A DNA stretch of 64,000 bases from an uncultured Candidatus Saccharibacteria bacterium (GTDB taxonomy: Bacteria; Patescibacteriota; Doudnabacteria; UBA920), in NCBI GenBank assembly GCA_964532425.1, contig CAZHIA010000002.1, positions 13,945-77,944 on the forward strand. Direction: 5' to 3'. A program made the translations under genes and the position numbers. Positions 3,199-47,577 of the stretch are shown piece after piece. Position 1 is the stretch's first letter. Each line of letters begins with the position of its first letter. The notes beneath the pieces are model-generated. The model was not told where the DNA came from and did no database searches. It saw only the letters and a list, made by a program, of their open reading frames with translations.

Positions 3199-3936
3199 AT
3201 GAGCATAGAGAACCTTCTCACCAACATCGGGCTTTCCAAGGTAGAATCCCAGGTATATTTGGCAGCTCTGGAACTCGGCACTTCCCTGCCGAAACATCTA
3301 GCCGAAAAGGCCGGCGTAAAACGGCCGACACTCTATGAACTGCTTCCCCGTCTGTTTGAGCATGGGTTATTGTCTGAAACCGTCATAGGCAAACGCAGAT
3401 TTTTAGTTGCAGAGGATCCTGAGGCTTTTCTCGATAAGAAGCAGTCCGAACTGCAACAATTGCAGCAGGCCGTGCCCCAGCTTCAATTATTATTGGCAAC
3501 GGCATCCATCAAGCCCAATATTATCTTTTATGAAGGAGTCGAGGGTTTAAAAAAAATCTATTTGGACAACCTGCGCGTTGGTCAGTCAACACTGGAGCTC
3601 GTCGGCATCGAACAGATCCAGCCGGAGATCGAGCGTTATATTGACCAGTACTACATTCCGCTGCGCGTGAAACGCAGGATCCCGCTCAAAATGCTCATCT
3701 CCGGAGAAGCCAAAACCGGTATTTGGAATTTAAAAAGCAACCCCGCACTGCTCAGGGAAGTTAAAACCATCGGTAAAGATGTTTGCCCGGTACCGCTCGA
3801 CTGCAACATTTATGGCGATAATGTCTCCTTCGCCCTCTACCGAAAGGATAGCGAACCGATTGGACTAATTATCAGGTCCAAAGAAATTGCGACGACCATG
3901 CGGTCTATTTACAATTTCCTCTGGGATAAGTCTTAA
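3199..3936 (+). CDS. TrmB-family transcriptional regulator (paralog 1)
   Basis: N-terminal HTH (VESQVYLAALELGTSLPKHLAEKAGVKRPTLYELLPRLFEHGLL) plus C-terminal TrmB-like domain; paralog at 37064. Confidence 0.65.
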   Translation: MSIENLLTNIGLSKVESQVYLAALELGTSLPKHLAEKAGVKRPTLYELLPRLFEHGLLSETVIGKRRFLVAEDPEAFLDKKQSELQQLQQAVPQLQLLLATASIKPNIIFYEGVEGLKKIYLDNLRVGQSTLELVGIEQIQPEIERYIDQYYIPLRVKRRIPLKMLISGEAKTGIWNLKSNPALLREVKTIGKDVCPVPLDCNIYGDNVSFALYRKDSEPIGLIIRSKEIATTMRSIYNFLWDKS

Positions 3937-9070: not shown

Positions 9071-9157
9071 GCCCGGGTGGCGAAATTGGCAGACGCACTA
9101 CCTTGAGGTGGTAGCGGCCGCAAGGCTGTGGGAGTTCGAATCTCCCCTCGGGCACCA
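9071..9157 (+). tRNA. tRNA-Leu (anticodon GAG), CCA encoded
   Basis: Cloverleaf with long variable arm; anticodon loop TTGAGGT; GTTCGAATC T-arm. Confidence 0.85.
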
Positions 9158-9158
9158 T

Positions 9159-9192
9159 GAAAAATACTCTACCTAAAGGTAGAGTATTTTTC
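9159..9192 (+). terminator. intrinsic terminator after tRNA-Leu
   Basis: aaaaatactctacc taaa ggtagagtattttt. Confidence 0.6.
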
Positions 9193-9266
9193 ATGGTGAG
9201 CAGAGGTTTAATAATTATACTTCCGGCTGTATTGAAAACATCATTTCATATCGCTATACTAGATTC

Positions 9267-14043: not shown

Positions 14044-14049
14044 AAAAAA

Positions 14050-14082
14050 TCCCTCCGGTAACCCCGGAGGGATTTTTGTTTT
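14050..14082 (+). terminator. intrinsic terminator
   Basis: tccctccgg taacc ccggaggga + tttttgtttt. Confidence 0.65.
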
Positions 14083-14400: not shown

Positions 14401-14630
14401 ATAGACAAAAGGTTAGCTTTTATATTTTACTCGGTATCTGCAATTCTGACAACCCCAACCATTATTCACAGCTTCAATGTTTTCTGATTGACAGAACAAG
14501 AACAATCCCTCATACTTACCCCATGAACCAAAAGATCCAATCCAACATTTCCTATTTCTGGCACTACAAGCTTTCTCCGGGAAAGTTGGTTTTGGAAATG
14601 TCCGCATAGTACTCCACTCACATTTCAAAA

Positions 14631-14662
14631 CAGCTTTCTCGGGTCCGAGAAAGCTGTTTTTT
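14631..14662 (+). terminator. intrinsic terminator (plus strand) with no upstream ORF
   Basis: cagctttctcgggtccgagaaagctg + tttttt. Confidence 0.5.
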
Positions 14663-14678
14663 ATTTATATACCATCAC

Positions 14679-14716
14679 CCCTCCATGGTCCCCATCGGGA
14701 TGGGGACCATGGAGGG
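14679..14716. repeat. 38-bp perfect palindrome P1 (CCCTCCATGGTCCCCATC-GG-GATGGGGACCATGGAGGG)
   Basis: Inverted copy at 15695-15732 (centre CC); degenerate copy at 47554-47577. Confidence 0.8.
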
Positions 14717-14845
14717 AACCATATATTATAGATAAACATTAACCATCCGATCATGTCATTCTCCACCCTGCAAAGCCTAAAGTTTTGGTACCGCTCCTCC
14801 TCAGGCACCTGAAGGCTGTTTTCCATTGTTTGTTGGAAATCATAA

Positions 14846-14883
14846 AACGCCCTCCAGGTTCGCCTGGAGGGCGTTTTTGTTTC
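14846..14883 (+). terminator. hairpin + T-run in leader 25 nt upstream of gene 14906 (attenuator-like)
   Basis: aacgccctccaggttcgcctggagggcgtt + tttttgtttcc. Confidence 0.5.
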
Positions 14884-14905
14884 CATCAATTTCAAAGGGG
14901 GAATT

Positions 14906-15685
14906 ATGAATCACGCTCAATACTACGTTCCGCTTCAAAAGAGTCGGGACCTGCTCGCATCACGAAGCGGCCTGCGCCAACAAGTGGAGGACTTCTGGTT
15001 GTCGCGCGGCTGGGGCTTGCCGCCCCAGCAGATCAGTAGGGGACGCAACATTTCCGTGCTTGCCCGACAGCTGGTCACCTTTCGCATGGAGGAAGCTTTG
15101 TTTGTGACAATGAGCAAACAGGCCGGACTCGAACCGGTGCTGGCCGGCTATTCGGCAGACAAGCATAGTTCACAGTCACGACTCAAACAGAGCTACCTGA
15201 GTCCGAAATTCATCGAGGGTCGCAATAAGAACAACGAACTCATTATCCGTCGGGACAAATTAACTGCCAAGAGCTGGCACGGTACTCCGCTCCATTGCAT
15301 CACACTCGACAAGAAAGGCGGTACCAGCCTGGTCGACTACCACCAAAGCATTCTCGACCGGGCCAGTCCGGGAACACTCCGCTGCGATGTCAGCGAATGG
15401 TATACCAATATCCCATGGAACGATCGGTACATAGCCCTCATGTCCTGGTTTATTGCCCACGCCGTGCTTTTCGAGGACTATCACGGAGGGGAATCGGGGC
15501 CCGGACTTTCGGCGCTAACCCGGCAGCGGTTTGAACCGGCCTTTCACCAAGCAACCCGGATGTTCGGTGTTAGCCCAATCATAACCCCGCTTCCATGGTG
15601 GAATGAGTTGTCCTACTACCCCCAAGATGCGGACTGGCAACGCCTTGGTATTATTCCGCAGGAGCTACTGCAAGCGGTCGCGTAG
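14906..15685 (+). CDS. hypothetical protein (no recognised family), bracketed by P1/P2 palindromes
   Basis: AAAGGGGG SD 5 nt before ATG; 259 aa; GC-richer than neighbours. Confidence 0.55.
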   Translation: MNHAQYYVPLQKSRDLLASRSGLRQQVEDFWLSRGWGLPPQQISRGRNISVLARQLVTFRMEEALFVTMSKQAGLEPVLAGYSADKHSSQSRLKQSYLSPKFIEGRNKNNELIIRRDKLTAKSWHGTPLHCITLDKKGGTSLVDYHQSILDRASPGTLRCDVSEWYTNIPWNDRYIALMSWFIAHAVLFEDYHGGESGPGLSALTRQRFEPAFHQATRMFGVSPIITPLPWWNELSYYPQDADWQRLGIIPQELLQAVA

Positions 15686-15694
15686 TAAGTCAAT

Positions 15695-15732
15695 CCCTCC
15701 ATGGTCCCCATCCCGATGGGGACCATGGAGGG
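15695..15732. repeat. 38-bp palindrome P2 (reverse-complement orientation of P1)
   Basis: CCCTCCATGGTCCCCATC-CC-GATGGGGACCATGGAGGG; 10 nt after stop of 14906 gene. Confidence 0.8.
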
Positions 15733-15759
15733 ACACCATTATAAATAATATATCCTCAT

Positions 15760-16719
15760 ATGTTTACAATAGCATCATTCATCAACCAATTGTGCGCCTT
15801 AGGCAGCCGCCAAGGAAAAACAGAAACTTTGGCAAAGAAGCACATCATCAACATTCTCCAAAAAAACTCTGTGCCATTCTTGCTGCAGGAATTTACCACC
15901 CTGATCCCCGACTACAAACATTCACGACTGACAGCAGACAGGAAAACCATTCTGGCAGAACCCTGTTGCTTTACGAGCGGTACCATTACCAACAAAAGCA
16001 ATATAATCAGCTCCCTTATTAGTTCGCAAAAAAATCTTATTGATCCAAATATCAACTTCAATCCAAAATGTGACCTTATATCACGCAGCAATCACTACTT
16101 TGCGCCGGCTTTTGCCATAGCGAGAAGAGATTTGAAAGATATCCTAAATGCAAAACAAGTTACCGGGGTCGTGCGCGTCAAGAAACTCCACCATCGTTCC
16201 GCCAACATCCTTATCGGCAACATCCATAACCCGCGCTCGATTGTTTTTACCCACTATGATTCCCTTGGTCCCGGCGCCTGTGACAATGCTTCGGGGGTGG
16301 CGGCAGTCATAACTGCTATTACGAACCAGCCTCAGCTGCTCGTCACCTCCCTGTTTGTTATTGCAGGAAATGAAGAGATTTCCTTTGATTTCCCAGTCTA
16401 TTGGGGCCATGGTTACCGAATTTTCGAGCAAAAATACAATAACCTGCTTAAGAAAACCAAAAAAATCATTGTCATCGACTCGGTTGGAATAGGGAAAACA
16501 GTCAGAGTGAAGGGAAAAAAGCTGCTTTCATTGGGCTTTCCTCTGGTAGCGATCAAACAATTAGCCCAGAAAACCTCAATGATTACAGGAGATTTTGGTA
16601 AATTAATGGCAGTTTACCACTCGGAAGGCGATATTCCTGAGGTTTTAGACATGAATGAGGTAGATAATGCAGCACAATTCATTATAAAATCCTTGAAATA
16701 CTCAATATCTAAAGGTTAA
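15760..16719 (+). CDS. M28-family zinc peptidase (aminopeptidase-like)
   Basis: Metal-ligand pattern THYDSLGPGACDNASG ... IAGNEEIS ... VIDSVG ... VYHSEGD. Confidence 0.6.
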   Translation: MFTIASFINQLCALGSRQGKTETLAKKHIINILQKNSVPFLLQEFTTLIPDYKHSRLTADRKTILAEPCCFTSGTITNKSNIISSLISSQKNLIDPNINFNPKCDLISRSNHYFAPAFAIARRDLKDILNAKQVTGVVRVKKLHHRSANILIGNIHNPRSIVFTHYDSLGPGACDNASGVAAVITAITNQPQLLVTSLFVIAGNEEISFDFPVYWGHGYRIFEQKYNNLLKKTKKIIVIDSVGIGKTVRVKGKKLLSLGFPLVAIKQLAQKTSMITGDFGKLMAVYHSEGDIPEVLDMNEVDNAAQFIIKSLKYSISKG

Positions 16720-16871: not shown

Positions 16872-17123
16872 ATGTCCGAGCAGGAACGGCTGACGTTCCT
16901 GGCTTCTAAAGACCTGCTTTCCATTAGTGAAGCAGCCAAGTTGACCCCGTATTCAGGGGAATATTTAAGTCTTTTAGCCAGAAATGGACGATTGCCGGCC
17001 ATTAAGATCGCAAGAAATTGGCTTACTACGCGTAAGGCCGTTTTGTCGTACCTGCAGGAACAACAACAAAAGCACCAGAATATTGTCGAACAACTCAGAC
17101 AGCTGCAGGAGGAGGTTATATGA
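16872..17123 (+). CDS. excisionase-family helix-turn-helix DNA-binding protein
   Basis: [47 protein letters not shown] resembles HTH_17/excisionase-type DNA-binding domain; stop overlaps next start (ATGA). Confidence 0.55.
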
Positions 17124-20100
17124 AGACCAAATTCCTGTTTGCTTGGATGTGCGGCACGCTGGTTCTCGCCGAACTCTTAGTGTCTTTCAGGGCCGCTCAA
17201 GATCAGCTCGTTACGTTTATTCCCCATGCGGTACACCGGGCGGTGCCGACCATTTTCCAAGATGCATCAAACTTTGTCTCCTTTTCCGAACGGATGGCTG
17301 GAGAAAAAAACCGGTTGTTGGTACAATTAGGATTTACGATTGAAAATGATCTGCAACATACCGGCCTCATAGCCAAATCTTTCCGTAACGATTCGGTTGA
17401 ACCATACCGCGCCATGGCAAATGCCATTCAAACCGGAATTCGGAAGCAAGCAAAAGACATAGAGTATGCTACCAGGTATGGCACGATTACCCTTAAAATG
17501 TGGAAGAGCTTCTTAGCCTGGGAAAACCAAGCAGTGGTAACTGCGGGCAACTGGGCATCATCAGATCTTAGGACTGACATTACGGCGCCATATCAAACCG
17601 GAGCTGTAGCAATCAGGCAAGGGTTATACGAACAGTCCCGGCAGGTTGGTAGGTTCTGGCAGGGAATAGTAGAAAACGCCGGTTCAATCGACATTGCAGT
17701 CAATGGCTTAGGGGAGCAACCGAATTTACCGCAACGGCTTGTTGCTACTAACGTTTTTCATCTCAAAAAACAAACTGAGGCCACAAATTCAACCCCTCAA
17801 CTTTCCCTTAACGCTCAAAACGGAAAAGTCCTTGCAGCCAAAACTTCGACAAACACGAATACTGGCAAACCAGTAGCACAACCTACATACCAGCCGGGCG
17901 ATACCATGGCTATGGTCAACCAGCGATTGGATGAATACACCCAATTCTTAGCTAGCTTTGGGTATGGGGTGAATGGGAATAATGGGTCGAATGGGGTGAA
18001 TACGACCAATCAGGCATCGGGAAATCAAACCACGGTCATCAACAATGTTCCGCTCGTTACCTATGTCCCGTCCAACCAATCGCAGAACTTCTCTGGTGGC
18101 TCCCTGGCCGGCTTTACCCAGCTTGGGGCAGACGGGTTGACCGTTTCCACCGCCAGAATCAACTCCAGTTTAAATCTTTCAGGCCCGGCCACACTCTCAT
18201 CACTGACGGTGAGTGGTTTGTCCTCTCTTGCTACAACTACGGTCACCGGCACCCTGACTGCAGAACATTTTGTCGGCGACGGAAGCGGCCTAACCGGCTT
18301 ACCCAGTGGTTCGCAATGGACCACCAGCGGAAGCGATATTTATTACAACAGCGGGAATGTCAGTATCGGAACAACTACACCGACTGCAAAATTCCAGGTT
18401 GATGGGACCTCTTATCTTGGATCTAATGCATCACAAGTTGCTAGTTATTTATCCGGTTGGGCCACAGCTGAAGCGTTCGTATACGGTCACACTAGCGGTA
18501 CCGATACCAGCTGGTACGAACGAAACGGTTTATATGTAGTAGAAGAAGATCATTCAGTGGATTCAAACACCCCTTATGTATATGGGGCCACCATTCAAGG
18601 AAACGGATATGGAACCGGTGATTATTCGGAAATTGCAGGTTTAAAAGTGTGGGGAACCGTAAACAACTCCACGACAATGTCCAATCAATATAGCAGTTTA
18701 TACGGGATTCAGACTTTTGGTGGAGCATATGACGATTCATCGGTTCAAAACGCTTATGGAGTTTGGTCAACCGGCGTCTACAACGGCAATTCAAATGTGA
18801 ATAACTTGTACGCCATATATTCCAGAAGGGCCGGCTATAGTCCCGGAGGCAAAGTAAATAACAGTTACGGAGTTTATATACAAAATCCAGTAGGGGGTGC
18901 TACTGGTAATAATTATGGATTGTTTTTGGATAACATGTCGGCCGGCACATCGACAAATTTTTCTATATATTCCGCTGGAGGTACCAGTTATTTTGCCGGC
19001 AGCATAGGAGTCGGCACAACTTCTCCTGTCGCGAGTTTGACAATAAAAGGAAGTGGTGGAACAAATCCGTTTGTGATTGCGTCATCGGCCGGGTCGACTT
19101 TATTAGCAGTTACACAGTCCGGCAACGTTGGTATAAACACTTCAACCCCGGCTTTCAAATTGGATGTTAATGGCATAATAAATGCTACTGCCCTGTACGT
19201 GAATGGCTCGCCTTACATTGGCAGCCAGTGGGCCACGAACGGATCGAGTGTCTACTACAATGGCGGCAATGTTGGCATTGGGACGACAACGCCGCAAGCC
19301 AAGCTCGAAGTTGACGCTACCGTAACCCCGACAGGAAGCGAGCTGGTGAGTAACGGTTCGTTCACCGGTGGAACTGCAGGGTGGACGCTTGGGTCCAATG
19401 TCAGTTATGGCACGAATAATGTCGTGAGCACCTACGCTGGCGGTGACCCATCGTTAAGTACGAATTTTAATACGGAAGCTGGTAAAACTTATTTGCTTAC
19501 CTTTACTGTTTCCAATGCCAACGCGAATTCATATTTGTATTTCTACTTGGACAACAACCGGCTTTCTTATAATTCGGGCCAAGTCTCGAATCAGACGTAT
19601 AGCGTGGCTTTTAAAACCGACTTTACCGGAACCGAAACAATACATTTTGACCAATGGAATTACACGAATGGGGAGACGTGGACTTTAGATAATGTATCCA
19701 TTAAGGAAATAAATCCCACAAAACCCTCTCTGCTCGTTAAAAATTATAATGGTGAGACGGTTCTTTCCGCTGGCGGGGATTTATATGGGAATACCGTATT
19801 CGGATCAGCTGCACTGAGCTCAAACACCACCGGTGGTAATAATCTCGCCTTAGGCAATAGAGCATTATTGTCCAATACGTCCGGCTGGGAAAATATAGCG
19901 TTAGGTGCGAATGCTTTATTCGCAAATACAACAGGAACGCATAACATTGCTGTTGGTCCGGCGCTGGCTAGCAACACGACAGGTGATGACAATTATGCGT
20001 TTGGAATCGGTTCCATGGCTAATAACACGAGCGGCAGCGCTAATATTGCCTTGGGACACATGACGCTTAACAGCAATCAAACAGGAAGTTTTAACATAGC

Positions 20101-23100
20101 TGTCGGAGCGGGTTCTTTATGGGATATGACTGGTGGTACCAATGTAACAGGGATTATAACCGGAACCGCGTGGGGACGGTCAGCTTATCCTTTTCCGTCA
20201 ATTTTCCGCGGAACACAAAAACAACTTGACAGTTCAGTACTTATTGGGCCACGAGCAACAACCGGTGTCAACAGCGATTCCGCATCTATGCTTACAAATG
20301 TTGTGGCGATAAACGGTATGGCCACACAGAGCAACCAGGTCGTCATCGGCAATAGCGCTACTCAGCAAATGATATTGTATGGCAATGTCGGGATTGGGAC
20401 CACTACCCCTTCCGCGACTTTGCATATAGAGGGAGCTCAGCCGCAGATTTTATCCAAAGCCACGGACCCGGCACAATCAGCTTCCTGGTCCCTGACAACT
20501 CCCGGCAACAACGTCTCATTCACGGCATACCAATATGGCAGCAGTTATGTCGGTACGTATTTGGGATTGAACGCTACCGGAGTTTCGGTACTTCGCGCCG
20601 CAGGCGGATCGGCAGGCATGGTCATCAACGAAGAATCCAACGCACCTATTTTGTTCGGCACCAGCAACCACGAACAAATGCGCATCGAGGGCGGCGGCAA
20701 TGTAGGCATTGGTATTACCGTACCCCAGGCCAAACTGCATGTATCCGGAGGCAATGTCCTGTTTGAAACCGGTAATGTCAGCATTGGCACCACCACAACA
20801 CCCAGCAAATTATTAGTCCAAGGAGCAACCGTTGACCCCACCGCTCCAGTCTTGAGCGTACTGAACCATTCAGCTGCAAATGTATTGACTGTGCTCGATA
20901 GTGGTAATATCGGTATTGGCACCACCACTCCTTCCCAGCTTTTGACGGTAGGCAATAATAACCAATTTACTGTGAGTACCACTGGTGCTGTAACCGGGCT
21001 TAGCTTTACGGATGTAAATGGTTCGCAAATGGGCGGCGGTGTATTAAATGTAGCCGGAGGAGGCAACGCGACTTATATTAATTCTTCCGGCATCAGTTTG
21101 CAGACCGGCAGCAGTATGAGGATTTTATGGAACGGCCAAAGCGTGGGATTGTCGAGCGGCGCGTCAGGAAAGCTTTATGTTGGTAACGGGACTATTGGTG
21201 ATTATTCGGGAACTTTAATCGCCGGCAACGTCGGCATCGGGACGACATCACCATCACAATTACTTGCGGTGGGAAATAATAATCAGGTCACGGTAGATTC
21301 GAATGGCTTGATTACAATGACAAAACCGAGCAGCGCTTTACCCGCAACGTATTTATATTTTAAAGTGCCAGGTTCCGCGGATTGGGGCGTATCGTTGGGC
21401 GCTGAAACTATTCCGAATTGGTATTTTGGTAGAGCGTCTACCCGCCAGACATCGGACTATTTTTGGAGAGCTAACTGGAATACCGCAGGCGTTGCGGTGA
21501 ACACATTCCAGAATGCGGATTCGGGTAACGGCTACGGTGGGGCTGCACTGACTACTATGAATATTCAAGGCATAACAAATCAGACGGGGGATTTGTTTGC
21601 AATTAGCACTTCCAGCTCGAGCCCAATGGGTAATTTGTTTAAGGTCCAGCAAAACGGGAATGTCGGGATTGGGACGACGAGTCCTATTGTAAAATTAGAT
21701 GTCTGGGGAAATTTGAATGTTGCAACGTCTTCCACATCGACTTTGTATGTAGATGCGGGCACAGGCAGGGTGGGGATTGGGAAGAATAATCCGAGCTATG
21801 CACTGGATGTAACGGGTCCAATACGTTCGACCAGTAATATTTACGGCGGCTGGGCAATGCTCCAACGCTTAGTCGATTCTGACAATAATTCTTATTACGT
21901 TAACCCCGACGCCAACGGCAGTGGATTTTCCGCAGTTTTAGCCGGCAACGTCGGCATTGGCACCACCACACCTAACCAAACTTTGGAAGTTGTTGGTAGT
22001 TTCGGGATTAGCAATGGGAGTAACAATACCAGGGTTGTCATGACTCCGGTATTCGCCAACACGTTGCAATTCAGTTATGGCGGTACGGGGGCTAACATTG
22101 GCAGCCTTACCAATGGTTCCTACTTATTGTTAGGTCCATCGGGCAGCACTACCACTCCGGTATACGCCTTTACCAATGACGCCAATACCGGCATTGGCAC
22201 TGCAGGGAACAGCAGTGACACCATCAGTTTAATTACCGCTGGCTCCAGCAGGGTATTTATTGATGCTCTTGGGAATGTCGGCATCGGGACGACGACACCA
22301 AAGGCAACACTGCATGTGGAGGGATCGCTAAATATAAACAACGGATCAATTACGCACACGACAAGCACCAATTTGACCACTATTGATTATTTACAGGTCG
22401 GGGCGAGCGGGTTTGAGACAGACGCCGGCATGGTGACATGGACAGATATGCCGGTGACGGCAAGCTCTGCCACTACCACGATTTTAAGCTACACCGCTTC
22501 TATGAACGGCGCGCCAGTGTTAACGGTGTATGCCAACGGCGACGGTGCGGGCGGCATCCAGAATGCGGCGGTCGGCATCGGCACCACTACGCCAACCTTA
22601 GGACCCTTAACGGTCAGTAACGGCGCTTATGTTACTGCCGGCGGAACCTGGACCAACTCTTCTGATAGGAATAAGAAAGAGAACTTTACCGATGTAGACC
22701 CGTTCGAGGTCCTGCAAAAAATCAACTTGCTTAGCATTCAACAGTGGAACTACAAGAACGAAACCGCTTCCACTACGCACATCGGCCCGGTCGCACAGGA
22801 CTTTTACGATAAGTTCCACCTGGGCGGCAGCGACCTTTCGATTTCCACTATCGACCCTGCCGGTGTGGCACTCTTAGGCATGCAGGGCTTTAGCAAAATT
22901 TTTGGATTGCAAGGCAACTTAAACGGCAGTTTATCATCCACCACCCCCATAACTATCACCCGCCAAGTTAACTTTGCTGGCGACACCGTGGGTGAGGCTA
23001 AAATTTTAGCCGGCGCAACCTCAGTCAGAGTGAATTTTGACCAGCCGTACGAGTATCAGCCAATTGTTACCCTAACACCTTTGGACTTCGTTGACGGCGC

Positions 23101-23536
23101 ATACCGCGTGACCGCAGCAGATGCCAGTGGCTTTACCATTGAGCTGCAGAAAATCCAAAGCATAGATGCCTCATTTAACTGGCATGCATTCGGCGGCAAA
23201 GGTACGCAGCTAACCGTATCCAACGGCAGCAAATCGAAAATAATTTTGGTGCCTGCAGGCAAAGGCCAAGTCGGCCAAACCAATCCCGCACTTACTGTAA
23301 CAACCGGAAACGGTTCCCCGCAGCCGACTACTACCACAACCGAAAACGAGAATAAAGGCACGGTAGCCGGCGCAAACACCGGAACTGAAGAACAACCGGC
23401 AACCGGAATTACGGAACCTGCAGCGAAGACTGATGGCACCATCACGACTCCGGAGCCGGCAGGAACCTCAACTCCTGACACCGGCACACAGGAAACTGCC
23501 AGCCCGGAAACCCCGACTGGGACGGCGGGGGAATAG
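17120..23536 (+). CDS. giant membrane-anchored fibre protein: tail-fibre-like G-I-G-T-T-T-P repeats, CBM-like module, Hep_Hag-like repeats, C-terminal Peptidase_S74-like intramolecular chaperone domain, Thr/Pro/Glu-rich tail
   Basis: GGAGGAGG SD; N-terminal TM helix; about 14 copies of GNVGIGTT(T/S)PxAKLxV; [12 protein letters not shown] module; SDRNKKENF...[10 protein letters not shown] near C-terminus. Confidence 0.85.
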
Positions 23537-23593
23537 GACTGGTAGGATGAATGGGTGAGATGAGTCCAATAGGGTAGATAAGAATAATAAGAT

Positions 23594-23670
23594 CTATAGG
23601 ATTGATAATTAATATAGGATGAATAGGAAGTATAGGATGTATAGGTCCTATCAAACCTATTTATCTTATA
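23594..23670. repeat. TAGGAT-word repeat tract (7-8-bp periodic)
   Basis: tataggattgataattaatataggatgaataggaagtataggatgtataggtcctat; 14-mer ATAGGATGAATAGG repeated at 24315-24328. Confidence 0.6.
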
Positions 23671-23676
23671 AAGCCT

Positions 23677-24309
23677 ATGGGTGGTTATAGGGATTTAAAA
23701 TCTTTCCAAGGAACGGAGATTATTTTTGATTTGACTGTGGAATTTTTATCCCGCTATATAAAAAATAACCGCAAGCTTTGGGAACAGATGGAAGGAGCCG
23801 CACGGAGCGGCAAGCAAAATTTAGCTGAAGGTTCAAAATACATGAACACTTCCCGCGCCTCTGAAATCAGGTTGATTGAGGTTAACCGTGGCAGCTTGGA
23901 AGAACTCTTGCTTGACTACGAAGATTGTCTGCGCAAGAATCATTTACCCATTTGGAGCATGCAGGACCACCGCGTGACCAAAATCAGGAAACTAGCTTAT
24001 GCTCCCAATAAGTCCTATAAAACCTATTTATCCTATTTGGAAAATCTAGAAACAGCTGCCAATTGTTTAATTACCATCATCAATCAAACTAACTATCTCT
24101 TAGACCGGCAAATGAGAAGCCTGAAAACCGATGTAATTGAAAAGGGCGACATGAGGGAAAGACTGTCACAAGAACGCAATGCATTTAAGAAAACTCAACT
24201 AGCCAACCCCGGACCATCGCTCGACGAATTTCTAAAAGGGTTCGGAATGAAACGTTTAGAAAACGGCCAAGTGATAAAAATTGAGGAATATGATTCAAAG
24301 AAACAATAA
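23677..24309 (+). CDS. four-helix-bundle protein (23S rRNA intervening-sequence protein family), extended C-terminus
   Basis: YRDLKSFQ...QNLAEGSKY...RLIEVNRGSLEEL pattern; paralog at 39760. Confidence 0.5.
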   Translation: MGGYRDLKSFQGTEIIFDLTVEFLSRYIKNNRKLWEQMEGAARSGKQNLAEGSKYMNTSRASEIRLIEVNRGSLEELLLDYEDCLRKNHLPIWSMQDHRVTKIRKLAYAPNKSYKTYLSYLENLETAANCLITIINQTNYLLDRQMRSLKTDVIEKGDMRERLSQERNAFKKTQLANPGPSLDEFLKGFGMKRLENGQVIKIEEYDSKKQ

Positions 24310-24319
24310 GACAAATAGG

Positions 24320-26452
24320 ATGAATAGGTCAGATATGACCAATAAGACCTATAGGACGTATAAGACCTTTATTGCTGCAATGATTGCGGCTGTTTTTCTG
24401 CTGCCCGGTTTTTCTGCCCAGGCTGCAATGATAAAAAAACAGCCGAATAATTTGGGACTGAAAGCTTATTGGAATTTTGACGAAGGCAAGGGGATAAAGG
24501 CTGGGGATTTTAGCGGGAATGGCAACAAAGGAACCCTATCCAACACCACCTGGACTAATGGCAAGCACGGCAAGGCTTTAAATTTTAACGGCAGCAACAG
24601 CGCCATGTCAGTTGCCAGCTACACTAACATGAGCCCAGGCGCCAACAACTTTTCTATAGCTTTTTGGATCAAAACTTCGGGCTATGGCGATTTAATTATA
24701 GGTGCGGACGGCAATGCGGGCACCACGCTGCAAGGCTACGGCCTGGCTATTCCTTTCGGCTGGGGCTGTGCCACACCCGGCCAGCTGTATTTTAATTTTT
24801 CTAATGGCGCTGCACGCGAAGTAGGTTTTTGTTCCAGCAGTATCATTAACGATGGTGGCTGGCATCATGTTTCTATAACTGTCACCCGCGGCGATAAAGT
24901 AAAATTTTACATAGACGGCAACTTGGACAACTCCTTAAACACTACCTTAAACGGTTCCGTACTCCTCCACCATTTCAGCATAGGACAAATTGCCTGGCAA
25001 GGCTGGCTGAACGGATTAATGGATGATATCCGCCTTTATAACCGCGCGTTGTCCGCAAGCGAGGCACTCACCTTATATCAAAGCGGCCAGGAAACCATAG
25101 GTGGCAACCAGGCTGGCCGCGGGACAGACGGTTTAGTAGGGTATTGGTCATTGAATGCCAGTGATGTTTCAGGATCGTCAGCAACCGATGCCAGCGGCAA
25201 AGGCAGAACCTTAACACTATTTAACGGTCCTGCAGCAGCCACTGGACGGTTTGGGCAGGCTTTGTCTTTTAACGGCAGTACGCAGTACGCCAGCACGAGC
25301 AATGCTTTTTCCGAAATCGGCGTGAGCAACCAGGCTTACACGGTTTCAGCCTGGGTCAAAATAGCGCAGGGCAAAACCCAGGGCGATATAATTCATACTT
25401 CCAGTTTGTCAAACGGTTCAGGCTGGTGTTTGGCGCCGCTTAAAATCAACGGCTCAAAAATTGAAACCACCAGCTGGAGTTCCGGTGATGTTACAATTTC
25501 CGGTAATACCACTTTAAAAGCCGATGCTTGGTATTTTTTGGCCGCCACCTGGTCTGCTTCCGGCGGACTACGCGCCTATGTTAATGGAAATTTAGATGCC
25601 TCGACAACTCAGAACACTTATACCGCCAGCGGAGTATCTAATTATATATTTTTGGGCGGGCACGGCGGAGGCTGCGCTTCTGACCGCGGCTATTTTACCG
25701 GAACTATAGATGAACCGCGGGTTTATAGTCGCGCTTTATCACAAACCGAATTAACCGCGCTTTATAATCTTGGCAAAAAAACCGAGAACACCTCACCAAC
25801 ATCGCGCTTAAATGACGGACTCATTGGCTACTGGAACTTTAACGGCGCGAATATGACGGACACACTTGCTTTAGACTCATCCGGTAACGGTTATACCGCC
25901 ACTCTTGCCGGTAACACCGCCAAAGCCATCGGCAAAATAGGGCAAGGGTTATATTTTGACGGCAGCGGCGATTACGTGGCAGTACCTTATACGGCGGCTT
26001 TGGCGCCTGCAAGCGCCATCAGTTATGGCGCTTGGTTTAAATCCTCCGATGTTTCCGCCAATACGCGCATTATTTCCAAAACCGAATTTGGCGGGTTTAA
26101 CCTAGGGCTCAACGACACGGTTTCCGGCATATCCGCCACCGTCAATACAACAAACGGGGGTTATCATTATGTAAATTACCCATCGCCGCAAAACAATCGC
26201 TGGTACCACGCGTTTGTCACCTATGACGGCAGCAATGTGAGTCTGTATGTGGATGGGCAGCTAGCCAGCAGCACGCCAGCTACCGGATTAGCCAACTTCA
26301 CCCGCACCAACCCTTTATGCATCGGGTCAGAACCCAATTCAACAGCGTGCACGTACGGCAACTATTTGACGGGCTTAATTGATGAAGTGCGCATTTATAA
26401 CCGCGCTCTGGCACCGGCTGAGGTTAAACAATTATACATAATGGGAAAATAG
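24320..26452 (+). CDS. secreted protein with three tandem LamG-like (concanavalin A-like lectin) domains
   Basis: Signal peptide ...AAVFLLPGFSAQA; three repeats each ending D(D/E)(I/V/P)R(L/I/V)YNRAL(S/A)..E(L/V)..LY; start ambiguous (24290/24320/24335). Confidence 0.7.
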   Translation: MNRSDMTNKTYRTYKTFIAAMIAAVFLLPGFSAQAAMIKKQPNNLGLKAYWNFDEGKGIKAGDFSGNGNKGTLSNTTWTNGKHGKALNFNGSNSAMSVASYTNMSPGANNFSIAFWIKTSGYGDLIIGADGNAGTTLQGYGLAIPFGWGCATPGQLYFNFSNGAAREVGFCSSSIINDGGWHHVSITVTRGDKVKFYIDGNLDNSLNTTLNGSVLLHHFSIGQIAWQGWLNGLMDDIRLYNRALSASEALTLYQSGQETIGGNQAGRGTDGLVGYWSLNASDVSGSSATDASGKGRTLTLFNGPAAATGRFGQALSFNGSTQYASTSNAFSEIGVSNQAYTVSAWVKIAQGKTQGDIIHTSSLSNGSGWCLAPLKINGSKIETTSWSSGDVTISGNTTLKADAWYFLAATWSASGGLRAYVNGNLDASTTQNTYTASGVSNYIFLGGHGGGCASDRGYFTGTIDEPRVYSRALSQTELTALYNLGKKTENTSPTSRLNDGLIGYWNFNGANMTDTLALDSSGNGYTATLAGNTAKAIGKIGQGLYFDGSGDYVAVPYTAALAPASAISYGAWFKSSDVSANTRIISKTEFGGFNLGLNDTVSGISATVNTTNGGYHYVNYPSPQNNRWYHAFVTYDGSNVSLYVDGQLASSTPATGLANFTRTNPLCIGSEPNSTACTYGNYLTGLIDEVRIYNRALAPAEVKQLYIMGK

Positions 26453-32062: not shown

Positions 32063-32099
32063 GTAGGGGACGGTCGCGACCGTCCCCTACATTTTTTTA
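32063..32099 (+). terminator. intrinsic terminator after gyrA
   Basis: gtaggggacggtcgcgaccgtcccctac + atttttttat. Confidence 0.7.
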
Positions 32100-32733: not shown

Positions 32734-32809
32734 GGGCGTATAGCTCAGTTGGTAGAGCGGACGTCTTATACACGTCTGGTCCTAGGTTCGAGTCCTAGTA
32801 CGCCCACCA
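32734..32809 (+). tRNA. tRNA with anticodon TAT (tRNA-Ile UAU, AUA-decoding), CCA encoded
   Basis: GGGCGTATAGCTCAGTTGGTAGAGCGGACGTCTTATACACGTCTGGTCCTAGGTTCGAGTCCTAGTACGCCCACCA; anticodon loop CTTATAC. Confidence 0.8.
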
Positions 32810-37063: not shown

Positions 37064-37831
37064 ATGGTAGATTTCTCTCAAAACAAGGAGATCTCAGAGG
37101 TACTGGCTGGCTTTGGTCTGCATGATACAGACCAGCGGGTATATCTCGCTGCGCTTCCACTCGGACAAACCAATCTGGTTCCTCTGGCCCAAGCTGCATC
37201 ACTGCCGCTGACCACCGTCCAATCCATCGCCCAACGCCTGGAAAGACGGGGATTTTTCCTCGTAAGCAAAAAAGGATCACGCTCTACTTACGAGGCGGCC
37301 GACCCCGCCATGCTCGAACAGATCTTGTCGCGGCAAACCCGGGATCTCAAAGCCATAACCCCGCTGCTGGCCAGCCTAAAAGAACACAAAGGTGGGGAGG
37401 CGGGCATCCGCGTCTACCGCGGCGAGCGCATGCGCGATATTTTTTATGAGATTTTAAACAGCCGGGAAAAAATAGTTTATGAGATAGTCTCAGCCAAGGA
37501 CATCCAGGCTATCATGGGGGAAAAATTGCACTTCAGCAGACGGCGGGTTGAAAAGGGTATCCACTTAAAGAGCCTGCGTATTGAAAACAAGGAGATTAAG
37601 AAATACTCGCCCCGCATCCACGCCAAAGAACTGCGCGAGGCGCGCTTTCTGCCTAAGGAATTGGCTTTTAAGACCTCAATCATCCTTTGGGGAACCAGTA
37701 TTGCCTACTTTACTACCTACGAAGAAGGCCTGGCCTGGACCGTGCAGAGCAATGCCATGGCCGAGAGTTTCAAGCAACTGTTCAACCTGTTATGGATGAT
37801 CAGCCGACCAATGATCACCCTGAAAGAATAA
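37064..37831 (+). CDS. TrmB-family transcriptional regulator (paralog 2)
   Basis: HTH (DQRVYLAALPLGQTNLVPLAQAASLPLTTVQSIAQRLERRGFF) and TrmB C-domain; similar to 3199 gene. Confidence 0.65.
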   Translation: MVDFSQNKEISEVLAGFGLHDTDQRVYLAALPLGQTNLVPLAQAASLPLTTVQSIAQRLERRGFFLVSKKGSRSTYEAADPAMLEQILSRQTRDLKAITPLLASLKEHKGGEAGIRVYRGERMRDIFYEILNSREKIVYEIVSAKDIQAIMGEKLHFSRRRVEKGIHLKSLRIENKEIKKYSPRIHAKELREARFLPKELAFKTSIILWGTSIAYFTTYEEGLAWTVQSNAMAESFKQLFNLLWMISRPMITLKE

Positions 37832-37856
37832 TCTTAAGAATTTTTTTTTTGCTCTT

Positions 37857-37894
37857 TGTGGGGAAGCACTCACAATTGTGAGTGCTTCCCCACA
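37857..37894. repeat. 38-bp perfect palindrome TGTGGGGAAGCACTCACAA|TTGTGAGTGCTTCCCCACA
   Basis: preceded by T10 run, followed by AAAA; not a canonical terminator on either strand. Confidence 0.7.
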
Positions 37895-38025
37895 AAATTC
37901 AATCGCATATTATTTGTTATAAGATGCACTTATACAACCCCCTCTAAAAGCAAACTGAAATTGTATGCCCCATAATAAAAAGCCTACTAAAGCCAAAAAA
38001 GGCTCGTTCGGCGAAGATTGAGGTG

Positions 38026-39719: not shown

Positions 39720-40158
39720 TTTAAATGATTGACACGATTTAAATGAATAGCACAAACAAATGGACCACAATGATTTAACGAAACGAACAAAAAATTTCGC
39801 TGTTAAGATCATCGAGCTGGCAAAATATCTAGAAGAGTATTGTGGCAACACTGGGAGAAAAATAGGAGATCAATTACTACGATCAGGTACGAGAGTTTAT
39901 GCCAACTATAGGGCCGCTTGCAGATGCAAGTCGGCAAAAGATTTTATCTCTAAAATAGGAACAGTGGTAGAAGAATCTGATGAATCACTAGGGTGGCTAG
40001 AGTTAATTGACGCAGCTAATTTAATTCCTCATTATATGCTTGAAGAACTGCTAAGAGAAACAAATGAGATCACTGCTATAATGAACGCCTCAAAAACAAC
40101 TGCGATCAGAAATGTAAAGCGTGACAGACCTTAATCATGTCAATCATTTAAATCATTT
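39714..40158. mobile_element. 445-bp cassette with perfect 21-bp terminal inverted repeats carrying a 4HB gene
   Basis: AAATGATTTAAATGATTGACA (39714-39734) and exact reverse complement TGTCAATCATTTAAATCATTT (40138-40158); left TIR overlaps rsmI stop codon. Confidence 0.45.
39760..40134 (+). CDS. four-helix-bundle protein (23S rRNA intervening-sequence protein family)
   Basis: FAVKIIELAKYL...GDQLLRSGTRVYANYRAA...AKDFISKIGTVVEESDESLGWLELI matches family pattern. Confidence 0.7.
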   Translation: MDHNDLTKRTKNFAVKIIELAKYLEEYCGNTGRKIGDQLLRSGTRVYANYRAACRCKSAKDFISKIGTVVEESDESLGWLELIDAANLIPHYMLEELLRETNEITAIMNASKTTAIRNVKRDRP

Positions 40159-47553: not shown

Positions 47554-47577
47554 CCCTCCATGGTCCCCATGGGGGGA
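47554..47577. repeat. degenerate copy (P3) of the P1/P2 palindrome
   Basis: CCCTCCATGGTCCCCATGGGGGGA, shares first 17 nt with P1. Confidence 0.6.

Follow-up and report, generated by a model that had tools for sequence, protein, structure and literature searches.

A gene that stands between two inverted copies of the same perfect palindrome raises the question of whether the palindromes brought it there, as the ends of a mobile element, or whether they came to lie beside a gene that was already resident. The question is posed here by a 64-kb stretch of contig CAZHIA010000002.1 (the window, meaning the whole stretch of DNA that was analyzed), in which a 38-bp palindrome, designated P, occurs as two full copies, P1 and P2, on the two sides of a gene encoding a protein of 259 amino acids (aa), immediately ahead of a gene for an M28-family peptidase. 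An earlier, sequence-only reading of this DNA had offered two explanations: an orphan gene delivered by a hairpin-delimited cassette resembling palindrome-associated transposable elements (PATEs), or insulators resembling repetitive extragenic palindromes (REPs) that flank a recently acquired gene. The best reading of the evidence gathered here is that P does not end a mobile element and is instead a small hairpin repeat confined to this genome. A REP-like insulator is retained in the explanation that we favor, while the gene proved to be resident rather than recently acquired. The features on which the argument turns are as follows.

14679-14716, no strand assigned: P1, a 38-bp perfect palindrome, CCCTCCATGGTCCCCATC-GG-GATGGGGACCATGGAGGG, with 18-nt arms
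14906-15685, + strand: the 259-aa gene, of an uncharacterized family with the invariant motif E-D-Y-H-G-G-E-S
15695-15732, no strand assigned: P2, a 38-bp palindrome with the same arms as P1 and the center CC
15760-16719, + strand: gene for an M28-family peptidase of 319 aa (Pfam PF04389), the downstream partner of the 259-aa gene

Results

Two full copies of one palindrome in opposite orientations

Both full copies have the architecture 18 + 2 + 18, and P2 is the exact reverse complement of P1. The sequence check thereby confirmed what had been read from the GG and CC centers of the two self-complementary palindromes: as inverted repeats they are complementary at 39 of 39 positions, and as direct repeats they are 95% identical. 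An origin of P2 as a direct copy would need two random substitutions that complement both central bases, for which a probability of ~1.6e-4 was calculated, and P2 is therefore read as a copy in the opposite orientation or as the product of a loop flip. The spurious open reading frames (ORFs) reported on both strands were also found again, P1 and P2 both being translated as PPWSPSRWGPWR. The copies are 976-978 bp apart, the segment between them being 14717-15694. The 18-mer arm, which resembles CC(T)CCAT(C)GG repeated twice in tandem, matches the window five times when as many as 3 mismatches are allowed, where shuffled sequence would give 0.01 matches; the fifth of these belongs to a third, short form, P3. 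A wider scan of the window (up to 5 mismatches, all 10-12-mers of P) gave nothing beyond P1, P2, and P3.

All three forms are intergenic, and each lies at the boundary between same-strand units. P1 is situated 12 nt past the tail of a terminator, T1, between two small-ORF units, A and B, and P2 extends from 9 nt past the stop codon of the 259-aa gene to 27 nt short of the M28 start codon. The predicted RNA hairpins have energies of -36.8 kcal/mol (z -5.4) for P1 and -37.8 kcal/mol (z -6.0) for P2, and the predicted DNA hairpins -21.5 and -22.7 kcal/mol, respectively. A T-run follows neither copy, the tails being AACCATATAT and ACACCATTAT, and the terminator scan, which calls the nearby T0, T1, and T2, calls neither of them. 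Both P1 and P2 are followed, at a similar distance, by an AT-rich stretch that resembles a -10 box. The flanks of P1, P2, and P3 showed no similarity above that of shuffles in either orientation, no target-site duplication, and no common motif.

P2 and both of its junctions are reproduced in an independent Logan assembly (run SRR11567520; contigs L020 and L047), whose contigs end in P, as expected of a repeat shared at k=31, and, being built at that k, are blind to orientation across a 38-bp repeat. An assembly artifact was considered and ruled out by this independent assembly of P2 with its junctions, together with an orientation that matches conserved synteny. The left end of contig L020 lies at 14818, where the window has no visible repeat, and may owe its position to variation in the population or to a gap in coverage between P1 and T2.

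The gene between the palindromes is half of a conserved pair

The locus was compared with loci from diverged Patescibacteria-type genomes, whose proteins are 33-54% identical. The family gene lies directly upstream of the M28 gene in seven of the eight loci (the window, L021, L025, L026, L049, L053, and L055), and two of these, L053 and L055, were retrieved via M28 homologues only and nevertheless carry the family gene upstream (hidden Markov model E-values of 1e-89 and 1e-103). The exception is L050, where a gene for an S66 peptidase precedes the family gene and the gene beginning downstream of it, ahead of the contig end, is not M28-like. The nearest relatives are 44% identical for the 259-aa family and 54% identical for the M28 peptidase, and the named homologues of the latter come from Candidatus Pacebacteria, Kaiserbacteria, and Kerfeldbacteria. 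The upstream neighbors of the pair vary by genome (ftsZ, parB, pheT, the gene for the CCA-adding enzyme, a gene of the UDG family, or tRNA-Cys), and because they differ everywhere, the conserved unit is the pair composed of the family gene and the M28 gene. It follows from the conservation of the pair in seven of the eight loci that P2 splits an ancient gene pair and does not end an insert. Nor was the presence/absence pattern of an IS200/IS605 or PATE insertion found, as the gene stands beside M28 in these distant loci even when they are looked up by M28 first. The cassette proposal falls on this synteny, on the want of a transposase in the window, and on the missing target-site duplication; the orthologous loci, moreover, have the gene without the palindromes. 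We are highly confident that the 259-aa gene is not mobile cargo.

The M28 gene of the window has no Shine-Dalgarno (SD) sequence, and an AT-rich, -10-like stretch lies directly upstream of it. The same was seen at the M28 genes of all the paired loci (15733-15762 in the window, and L021, L025, L026, L049, L053, and L055), each lacking an SD sequence and having a -10-like AT-rich stretch ~7-15 nt before the ATG. Such an arrangement suggests that the M28 mRNAs may be leaderless, or have very short leaders, and may be transcribed from a promoter of their own.

A stem-loop of variable sequence occupies the position of P2

All seven spacers between the family gene and the M28 gene hold a GC-rich stem-loop, with stems of 11-19 bp and energies of -19.8 to -37.2 kcal/mol (z-scores for the whole spacer in the seven loci, -2.5 to -7.1). 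These stem-loops start 6-33 nt past the stop codon, are followed by no T-run, and are unrelated in sequence between genomes. P2 thus fills a slot in which the six orthologous loci, without exception, have an unrelated GC-rich stem-loop, and P1 has no positional equivalent in any of the six. Equally strong GC-rich hairpins occur in 6 of the 29 other same-strand spacers of the same loci, as against 7 of 7 here, by thresholds that were set post hoc. These frequencies indicate that GC-rich hairpins are ordinary punctuation in these genomes and that the full count at this slot, 7 of 7 spacers, reflects positional conservation. The spacer hairpins of the other genomes are single-copy in their own loci and do not recur; since P1 also lacks a counterpart, the duplication of P is specific to this genome.

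P3, the copy number of P, and the neighboring hairpins

Two further features are needed here.

47554-47576, no strand assigned: P3, a short form, CCCTCCATGG-TCC-CCATGGGGGG, whose first 17 nt are the P arm
14045-14077, no strand assigned: T0, a bidirectional terminator after the preceding gene, with the stem TCCCTCCGG/CCGGAGGGA

P3 lies 33 nt past the stop codon of a Wzy_C (O-antigen-ligase-like) gene, ahead of an Lnb_N gene. It had been described as a degenerate copy after an O-antigen-ligase-like gene, and both the relationship and the location stand; it is, however, a self-contained shorter hairpin that ends at 47576, with a stem of 10-11 bp and an energy of -19.6 kcal/mol, and corresponds to P less 15 central bases plus one substitution.

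The sequence of the source genome covered here amounts to 72.9 kb, made up of the 64-kb window and 8.9 kb from Logan contigs, and no further copy of P was found in the 8.9 kb beyond the window. The palindrome is absent from the GTDB representative genomes, the JGI metagenomes, and IMG/VR, which gave only single 18-mer matches (19, 19, and 1, respectively); these are at chance level, ~17 having been estimated by hand for the GTDB scan in which 19 were seen. The source genome and any close relative are accordingly not in those collections.

An outer CCCTCC..GGAGGG stem is common to T0, T2, and P, and all four hairpins of this kind in the 64-kb window lie within 1.7 kb (14051-14071, 14679-14716, 14850-14871, and 15695-15732), the two 6-mers CCCTCC and GGAGGG occurring overall at chance frequency in the window (14 and 15 times). 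This clustering suggests local copying or conversion among terminator-type hairpins.

Other palindromes of the window were recorded as well. One of 42 nt without a spacer lies at 37855-37896, directly after a TrmB-like regulator gene (37064-37831); one of 46 nt at 9153-9198 overlaps the CCA end of a tRNA-Leu gene; and one of 28 nt at 32063-32090 is within the start of a gene for a haloacid dehalogenase (HAD) hydrolase.

The 259-aa protein and its family

The 259-aa gene has a strong SD sequence, AAGGGGGA. Its product matched nothing in Pfam, NCBIfam, or the sequences of the PDB, and the statement that it has no recognizable family is to that extent correct; it does not hold overall, given that an exhaustive profile search collected 829 representative clusters, of which 201 have E<=1e-30. 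A word-indexed search yielded 21 full-length homologues with 33-44% identity, one of which comes from a "Patescibacteria group bacterium". Twenty-five residues are invariant among the homologues, including those of the E-D-Y-H-G-G-E-S motif. When the AlphaFold2 model of the protein (predicted local distance difference test score, pLDDT, 92.6; predicted template modeling score, pTM, 0.90) was searched with Foldseek, neither the PDB nor BFVD gave a significant match. Weak matches to Rossmann-like nucleotidyl-transferase and ATP-pyrophosphatase folds (TyrRS, PanC, and QueC) recur, and the family bears a weak HUP/Rossmann-like resemblance. The identity of the protein as a transposase, including a REP-associated tyrosine transposase (RAYT), was considered and rejected, there being no Pfam, NCBIfam, or PDB match, no HUH motif among the invariant residues, and no transposase or recombinase fold. 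The plasmid and phage collections contained no match to the protein, nor any to P.

The gene was said to be locally GC-richer, and its GC content of 0.558 is indeed the highest of the 47 genes of the window, at the end of a continuous series (the next values being 0.557, 0.552, and 0.551). The excess is, however, not peculiar to this locus. In 7 of 7 loci, the GC content of the family gene exceeds that of its surroundings and is 6-20 percentage points above that of the M28 partner, and the GC content at third codon positions of the family genes reaches 0.83, as compared with 0.64. The compositional signal therefore belongs to the family and not to the locus, and horizontal transfer inferred from GC content was ruled out on that ground. 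The family-wide excess may stem from expression level, from mRNA structure, or from a bias of the family itself.

Small-ORF units upstream of the 259-aa gene

The interval between tRNA-Cys and the 259-aa gene appears to contain two short units in tandem.

14488-14666, + strand: small-ORF unit A, with a promoter-like site, a 28-codon ORF, and the terminator T1
14753-14883, + strand: tentative small-ORF unit B, with a 19-codon ORF, a decayed T1-like hairpin, and T2

Unit A begins with a promoter-like site, TTGACA-17-CATACT (14488-14516), followed by the 28-codon ORF (14523-14609, MNQKIQSNISYFWHYKLSPGKLVLEMSA) and by T1, a canonical terminator at 14627-14666 (-21.7 kcal/mol, z -7.6). In unit B, the 19-codon ORF (14753-14812, MSFSTLQSLKFWYRSSSGT) comes with the decayed hairpin at ~14797-14826, and a 28-nt stretch of the unit (14800-14827) is 71% identical to T1; then follows T2, a terminator-like hairpin with a T-run at 14844-14882 (-28.1 kcal/mol, z -7.2), just before the SD sequence of the 259-aa gene. 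The leader hairpin and T-run noticed in the sequence-only reading are those of T2, but the distance given there, 25 nt upstream of the SD sequence, needs amending: the T-run ends ~13 nt before the SD sequence and 23 nt before the ATG of the 259-aa gene.

A short unit of the same kind, consisting of a TTGACA-type promoter-like site, an apparently strongly promoted ORF of 19-37 codons, and a canonical terminator, precedes the family gene in the window, L021, L025, L026, L049, and L053. Seven of the eight candidate peptides contain a loose (Y/F/K)(F/A/S)(W/F) motif (SYFW, LKFW, IYFW, WYFF, GYAW, AFAW, and EYSW). The small ORFs begin within ~6-10 nt of a -10-like box. A scan with Rfam gave no family at the gathering threshold, the sub-threshold matches being terminator-driven only; among them, the PyrR binding site model matched each of the two attenuator-like units over its full length, with 29.4 and 30.3 bits (14567-14663 and 14772-14881), against a gathering threshold of 54, and these matches, too, are probably driven by the terminators.

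The conserved order of the module is small-ORF unit or units with a terminator, the 259-aa-family gene, the GC-rich stem-loop, and the M28 peptidase gene. The module extends over 14488-16719 in the window, 5700-7806 in L021, 5630-8013 in L025, 5390-7815 in L026, 3700-5816 in L049, 2775-4969 in L053, and 2488-4951 in L055.

Genomic context of the window

The window belongs to the core chromosome of a bacterium with a small genome and has infB, rbfA, gyrA, the gene for the S1 protein, tyrS, a gene for a class A penicillin-binding protein, yidC, dnaA-dnaN-recF, ruvB, and ruvC, along with seven tRNAs and type IV pilin-like proteins. No transposase, recombinase, integrase, or invertase was found among its 47 proteins, and none of the families Resolvase, Recombinase, and Phage_integrase is represented in the window or in its extension, contig L048.

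An 83-aa protein with an excisionase-family helix-turn-helix (HTH) domain (HTH_17, 28.2 bits), encoded at 16872-17123, is the sole weak hint of recombination. Its gene overlaps by 4 nt the start of a gene for a giant protein of 2138 aa with a Peptidase_S74 domain (endosialidase chaperone, tail-fibre-type), the region spanning 16872-23536. In the spacer that follows the giant gene (23537-23676), a TATAGGA(T/A)G-like motif is directly repeated several times, and after this spacer comes a gene for a 210-aa protein with a weak match to 23S_rRNA_IVP; a second gene of the IVP family lies at 39760-40134. A 723-aa protein with three Laminin_G_3 domains is encoded at 24281-26452. The window also has, at 32734-32809, a tRNA-Ile with the anticodon UAU, which is unusual in bacteria, where AUA is mostly read by a lysidine-modified CAU tRNA.

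Discussion

The explanation that we favor is that P is a REP-like hairpin module specific to the lineage, which serves to punctuate transcript boundaries, and we give this model, taken as a whole, an even chance of being right. P2 would be this genome's version of the position-conserved stem-loop, P1 a second copy placed between the small-ORF units, and P3 a short form after another gene. At the 3' side of a transcription unit, each transcribed full copy would fold into a stem of 17-18 bp with an energy of ~-37 kcal/mol, and the folded P might serve as a boundary element, acting as a barrier to 3'-exonucleases, as a pause site or partial terminator, or as a processing site. In this way, it would uncouple the expression of the neighboring same-strand units, namely small-ORF unit A, small-ORF unit B with the enzyme gene, and the M28 gene. 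The GG/CC flip would be no more than the trace of a loop flip or of the direction in which P was copied, without a function of its own; because the stem is symmetric, the hairpin is alike in both orientations, and orientation is irrelevant to the RNA structure. The copies may have been made by a trans-acting, REP-type transposase encoded elsewhere, or by local templated copying or conversion among the CCCTCC..GGAGGG hairpins. Given the clustering of these hairpins and the tandem-unit appearance of the arm, local templated copying or fold-back synthesis is as plausible a source of P as REP-type transposition.

Two kinds of known element are closest to what this model supposes. The E. coli malE-malF REP is an intercistronic stem-loop that sets differential expression in a gene cluster. 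P2 resembles such intercistronic stem-loops in being a stable hairpin just past a stop codon and before the next same-strand gene, with no T-run, at a slot that is conserved in position among orthologous loci while its sequence varies. It may differ from them in that the M28 gene possibly has its own promoter and SD-less translation, so that P2 might be the boundary of a unit instead of an intra-operonic element. REPs proper are found in both orientations, which their central dinucleotide marks; they can be co-opted for transcription attenuation, and long perfect palindromic REP singlets arise (PMC3337134). Like the elements of the REP, REPIN (paired REPs), and bacterial interspersed mosaic element (BIME) type, P is a short, GC-rich, extragenic palindrome present in both orientations, with decayed and long perfect variants on record, and its orientation is read from the central bases, GG/CC in P and TT/AA in the REPs of Pseudomonas (PMC3337134). 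REPs, too, are frequent between same-strand genes, where mRNA stabilization and attenuation are among their possible functions, and RAYT genes are flanked by inverted REPs in a layout resembling that of P1 and P2. P is unlike REPs in that it is perfect and without asymmetric flanks, that its copies are 978 bp apart and not tens of base pairs apart as in a doublet, and that the gene it flanks is no RAYT, having neither a Y1_Tnp match nor an HUH motif. Hairpin size and stability, extragenic location, and occurrence in both orientations are thus those of a REP, but the RAYT is missing from the 72.9 kb covered, and P is at most a candidate member of a REP/RAYT system.

Several points weigh against the favored model. 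P lacks the T-run that follows the canonical terminators of the same genome, so that of the two parts of an intrinsic terminator it has the stem alone. The census stands at two full copies and one short form in 72.9 kb, and the high copy number (tens to hundreds of dispersed copies per genome) that is a defining feature of REPs would for P be a presumption. No RAYT or Y1 transposase was found in the 72.9 kb, nor any PF01797-type match among the 47 window proteins. Both full copies bracket one gene, an outcome for which random placement among ~50 spacers gives ~4%, so that pairing or local copying may have played a part. The perfect identity of P1 and P2 could reflect a sequence-specific role in DNA binding or recombination, and the RNA-level role of P is one that we infer.

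Of the other explanations, neutral local copying retains the most weight. P would then be the product of templated copying or gene conversion between terminator-type hairpins that share the CCCTCC..GGAGGG stem, made perfect by fold-back synthesis, and would do nothing beyond what any 3' hairpin does. The confinement of the four such hairpins to 1.7 kb, the tandem CC(T)CCAT(C)GG units of the arm, and the failure to find a mobility gene all fit this explanation, as does the relation of P to P3, since inserting 15 nt into a P3-like short form yields P and makes the fold-back perfect. The copying was, however, not solely local, because P3 lies 32 kb away; the stems of T0, T2, and P have only 8-9 nt in common; and a mechanism of this sort is not known to move hairpins between sites. 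Neutral copying as the full account of P is, in our judgment, unlikely.

A second alternative places the function of P in the DNA, where the two copies would be binding sites for a dimeric or tetrameric protein (a regulator, a nucleoid protein, or gyrase as at some BIMEs) that loops out or insulates the gene between them. Perfect sequence identity, dyad symmetry, and the -10-box-like stretch that follows both copies at a similar distance would suit such sites, and genes for HTH regulators are nearby (TrmB-like at 3199-3936 and 37064-37831, and HTH_17 at 16872-17123). A half-site of 18 bp is nevertheless unusually long for an operator, and no significant promoter-like site overlaps P on the + strand. 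It also tells against binding sites that the P2 slot of the orthologous loci keeps a stem-loop of unrelated sequence, which points to selection on structure and not on a recognition sequence, and we consider this alternative quite improbable.

P1 and P2 might also be the crossover sites of a site-specific recombinase that flips the 978-bp segment, comprising the leader and the 259-aa gene, and so switches this gene, and possibly M28, off and on. A non-palindromic 2-bp center between two arms, present in two inverted sites ~1 kb apart, fits the site logic of serine recombinases and recalls the half-sites around an asymmetric 2-bp core of the hix and gix systems; the size of 38 bp is similar to that of the attB sites of large serine recombinases. 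Perfect identity would be expected of sites that exchange halves, both full copies flank one gene, and the assembled orientation would be the ancestral "ON" synteny. The half-sites of P are, however, 18 bp long and perfect, unlike those of hix and gix, and the short P3 is left as an unpaired third copy. No recombinase, invertase, or integrase is encoded in or near the segment, whether among the 47 window proteins or on L048, with the 83-aa HTH protein as the sole hint, and the segment displays no outward-facing promoter logic. The inverted relation itself follows automatically when a symmetric palindrome is copied in the other orientation. We regard inversion as very improbable, and there is but a slim prospect for its more specific form, in which a recombinase encoded in trans flips the 1-kb enzyme-gene segment as gene-scale phase variation in an ultra-small Patescibacteria-type bacterium, with P3 as a decayed former site.

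Delivery of the 259-aa gene between tRNA-Cys and M28 by a mobile cassette of the IS200/IS605, PATE, or integron type, for which the identical bracketing hairpins, the tRNA genes just upstream, and the highest GC content of the window might have spoken, is hardly tenable in view of a pair that is conserved in seven of eight loci behind different upstream neighbors, an upstream small-ORF unit that recurs as well, a GC excess seen family-wide in 7 of 7 loci, window proteins that include no Y1/HUH transposase, TnpB, or integrase, a 259-aa protein without an HUH motif or a match to a transposase fold, a family absent from plasmid and phage collections, flanks without similarity or target-site duplication, and ends that are identical perfect palindromes where IS200/IS605 elements have distinct left and right ends. 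The outward likeness to such elements is real, inasmuch as IS200/IS605 elements and PATEs also have hairpins near both ends of a segment of ~1 kb, no classical terminal inverted repeats, and no target duplication. Their left and right hairpins are, however, different and imperfect and are used with a defined target tetra- or pentanucleotide, and the elements either have tnpA and/or tnpB genes or are short, without coding capacity, whereas the segment between P1 and P2 holds a conserved resident gene that encodes no transposase. An integron cassette, similarly, has palindromic sites on both sides of a single, promoter-poor ORF of ~1 kb, but attC sites are imperfect, have GTTRRRY cores and extrahelical bases, and keep one orientation per array, while P1 and P2 lack such cores and are opposed in orientation, and the window encodes no integrase.

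A hairpin-ended cassette moving an orphan gene would have meant a new mechanism of mobility, and that reading has been removed by the evidence. What the REP-like hairpin model leaves is a first small glimpse of a repeat of identical, REP-like hairpins in a Patescibacteria-type genome, and a structured but sequence-variable stem-loop that is conserved between two partner genes across the group. For annotation, palindromes like P should not be taken for the ends of mobile elements, and P may inform how reduced genomes punctuate transcription without canonical terminators. The residual value lies mostly in the inversion possibility and in the module formed by the uncharacterized enzyme and the M28 peptidase, along with the small ORF. 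This module could be a peptide-processing system or one resembling those for ribosomally synthesized and post-translationally modified peptides (RiPPs), or it could be a peptidase pair regulated by a leader peptide; in L050, the place of M28 in the module is taken by the S66 peptidase, which is of the LD-carboxypeptidase/MccF type. The 259-aa family and its M28 partner may in the end outweigh P in value, as a candidate module for the processing or modification of peptides in organisms dependent on peptide scavenging.

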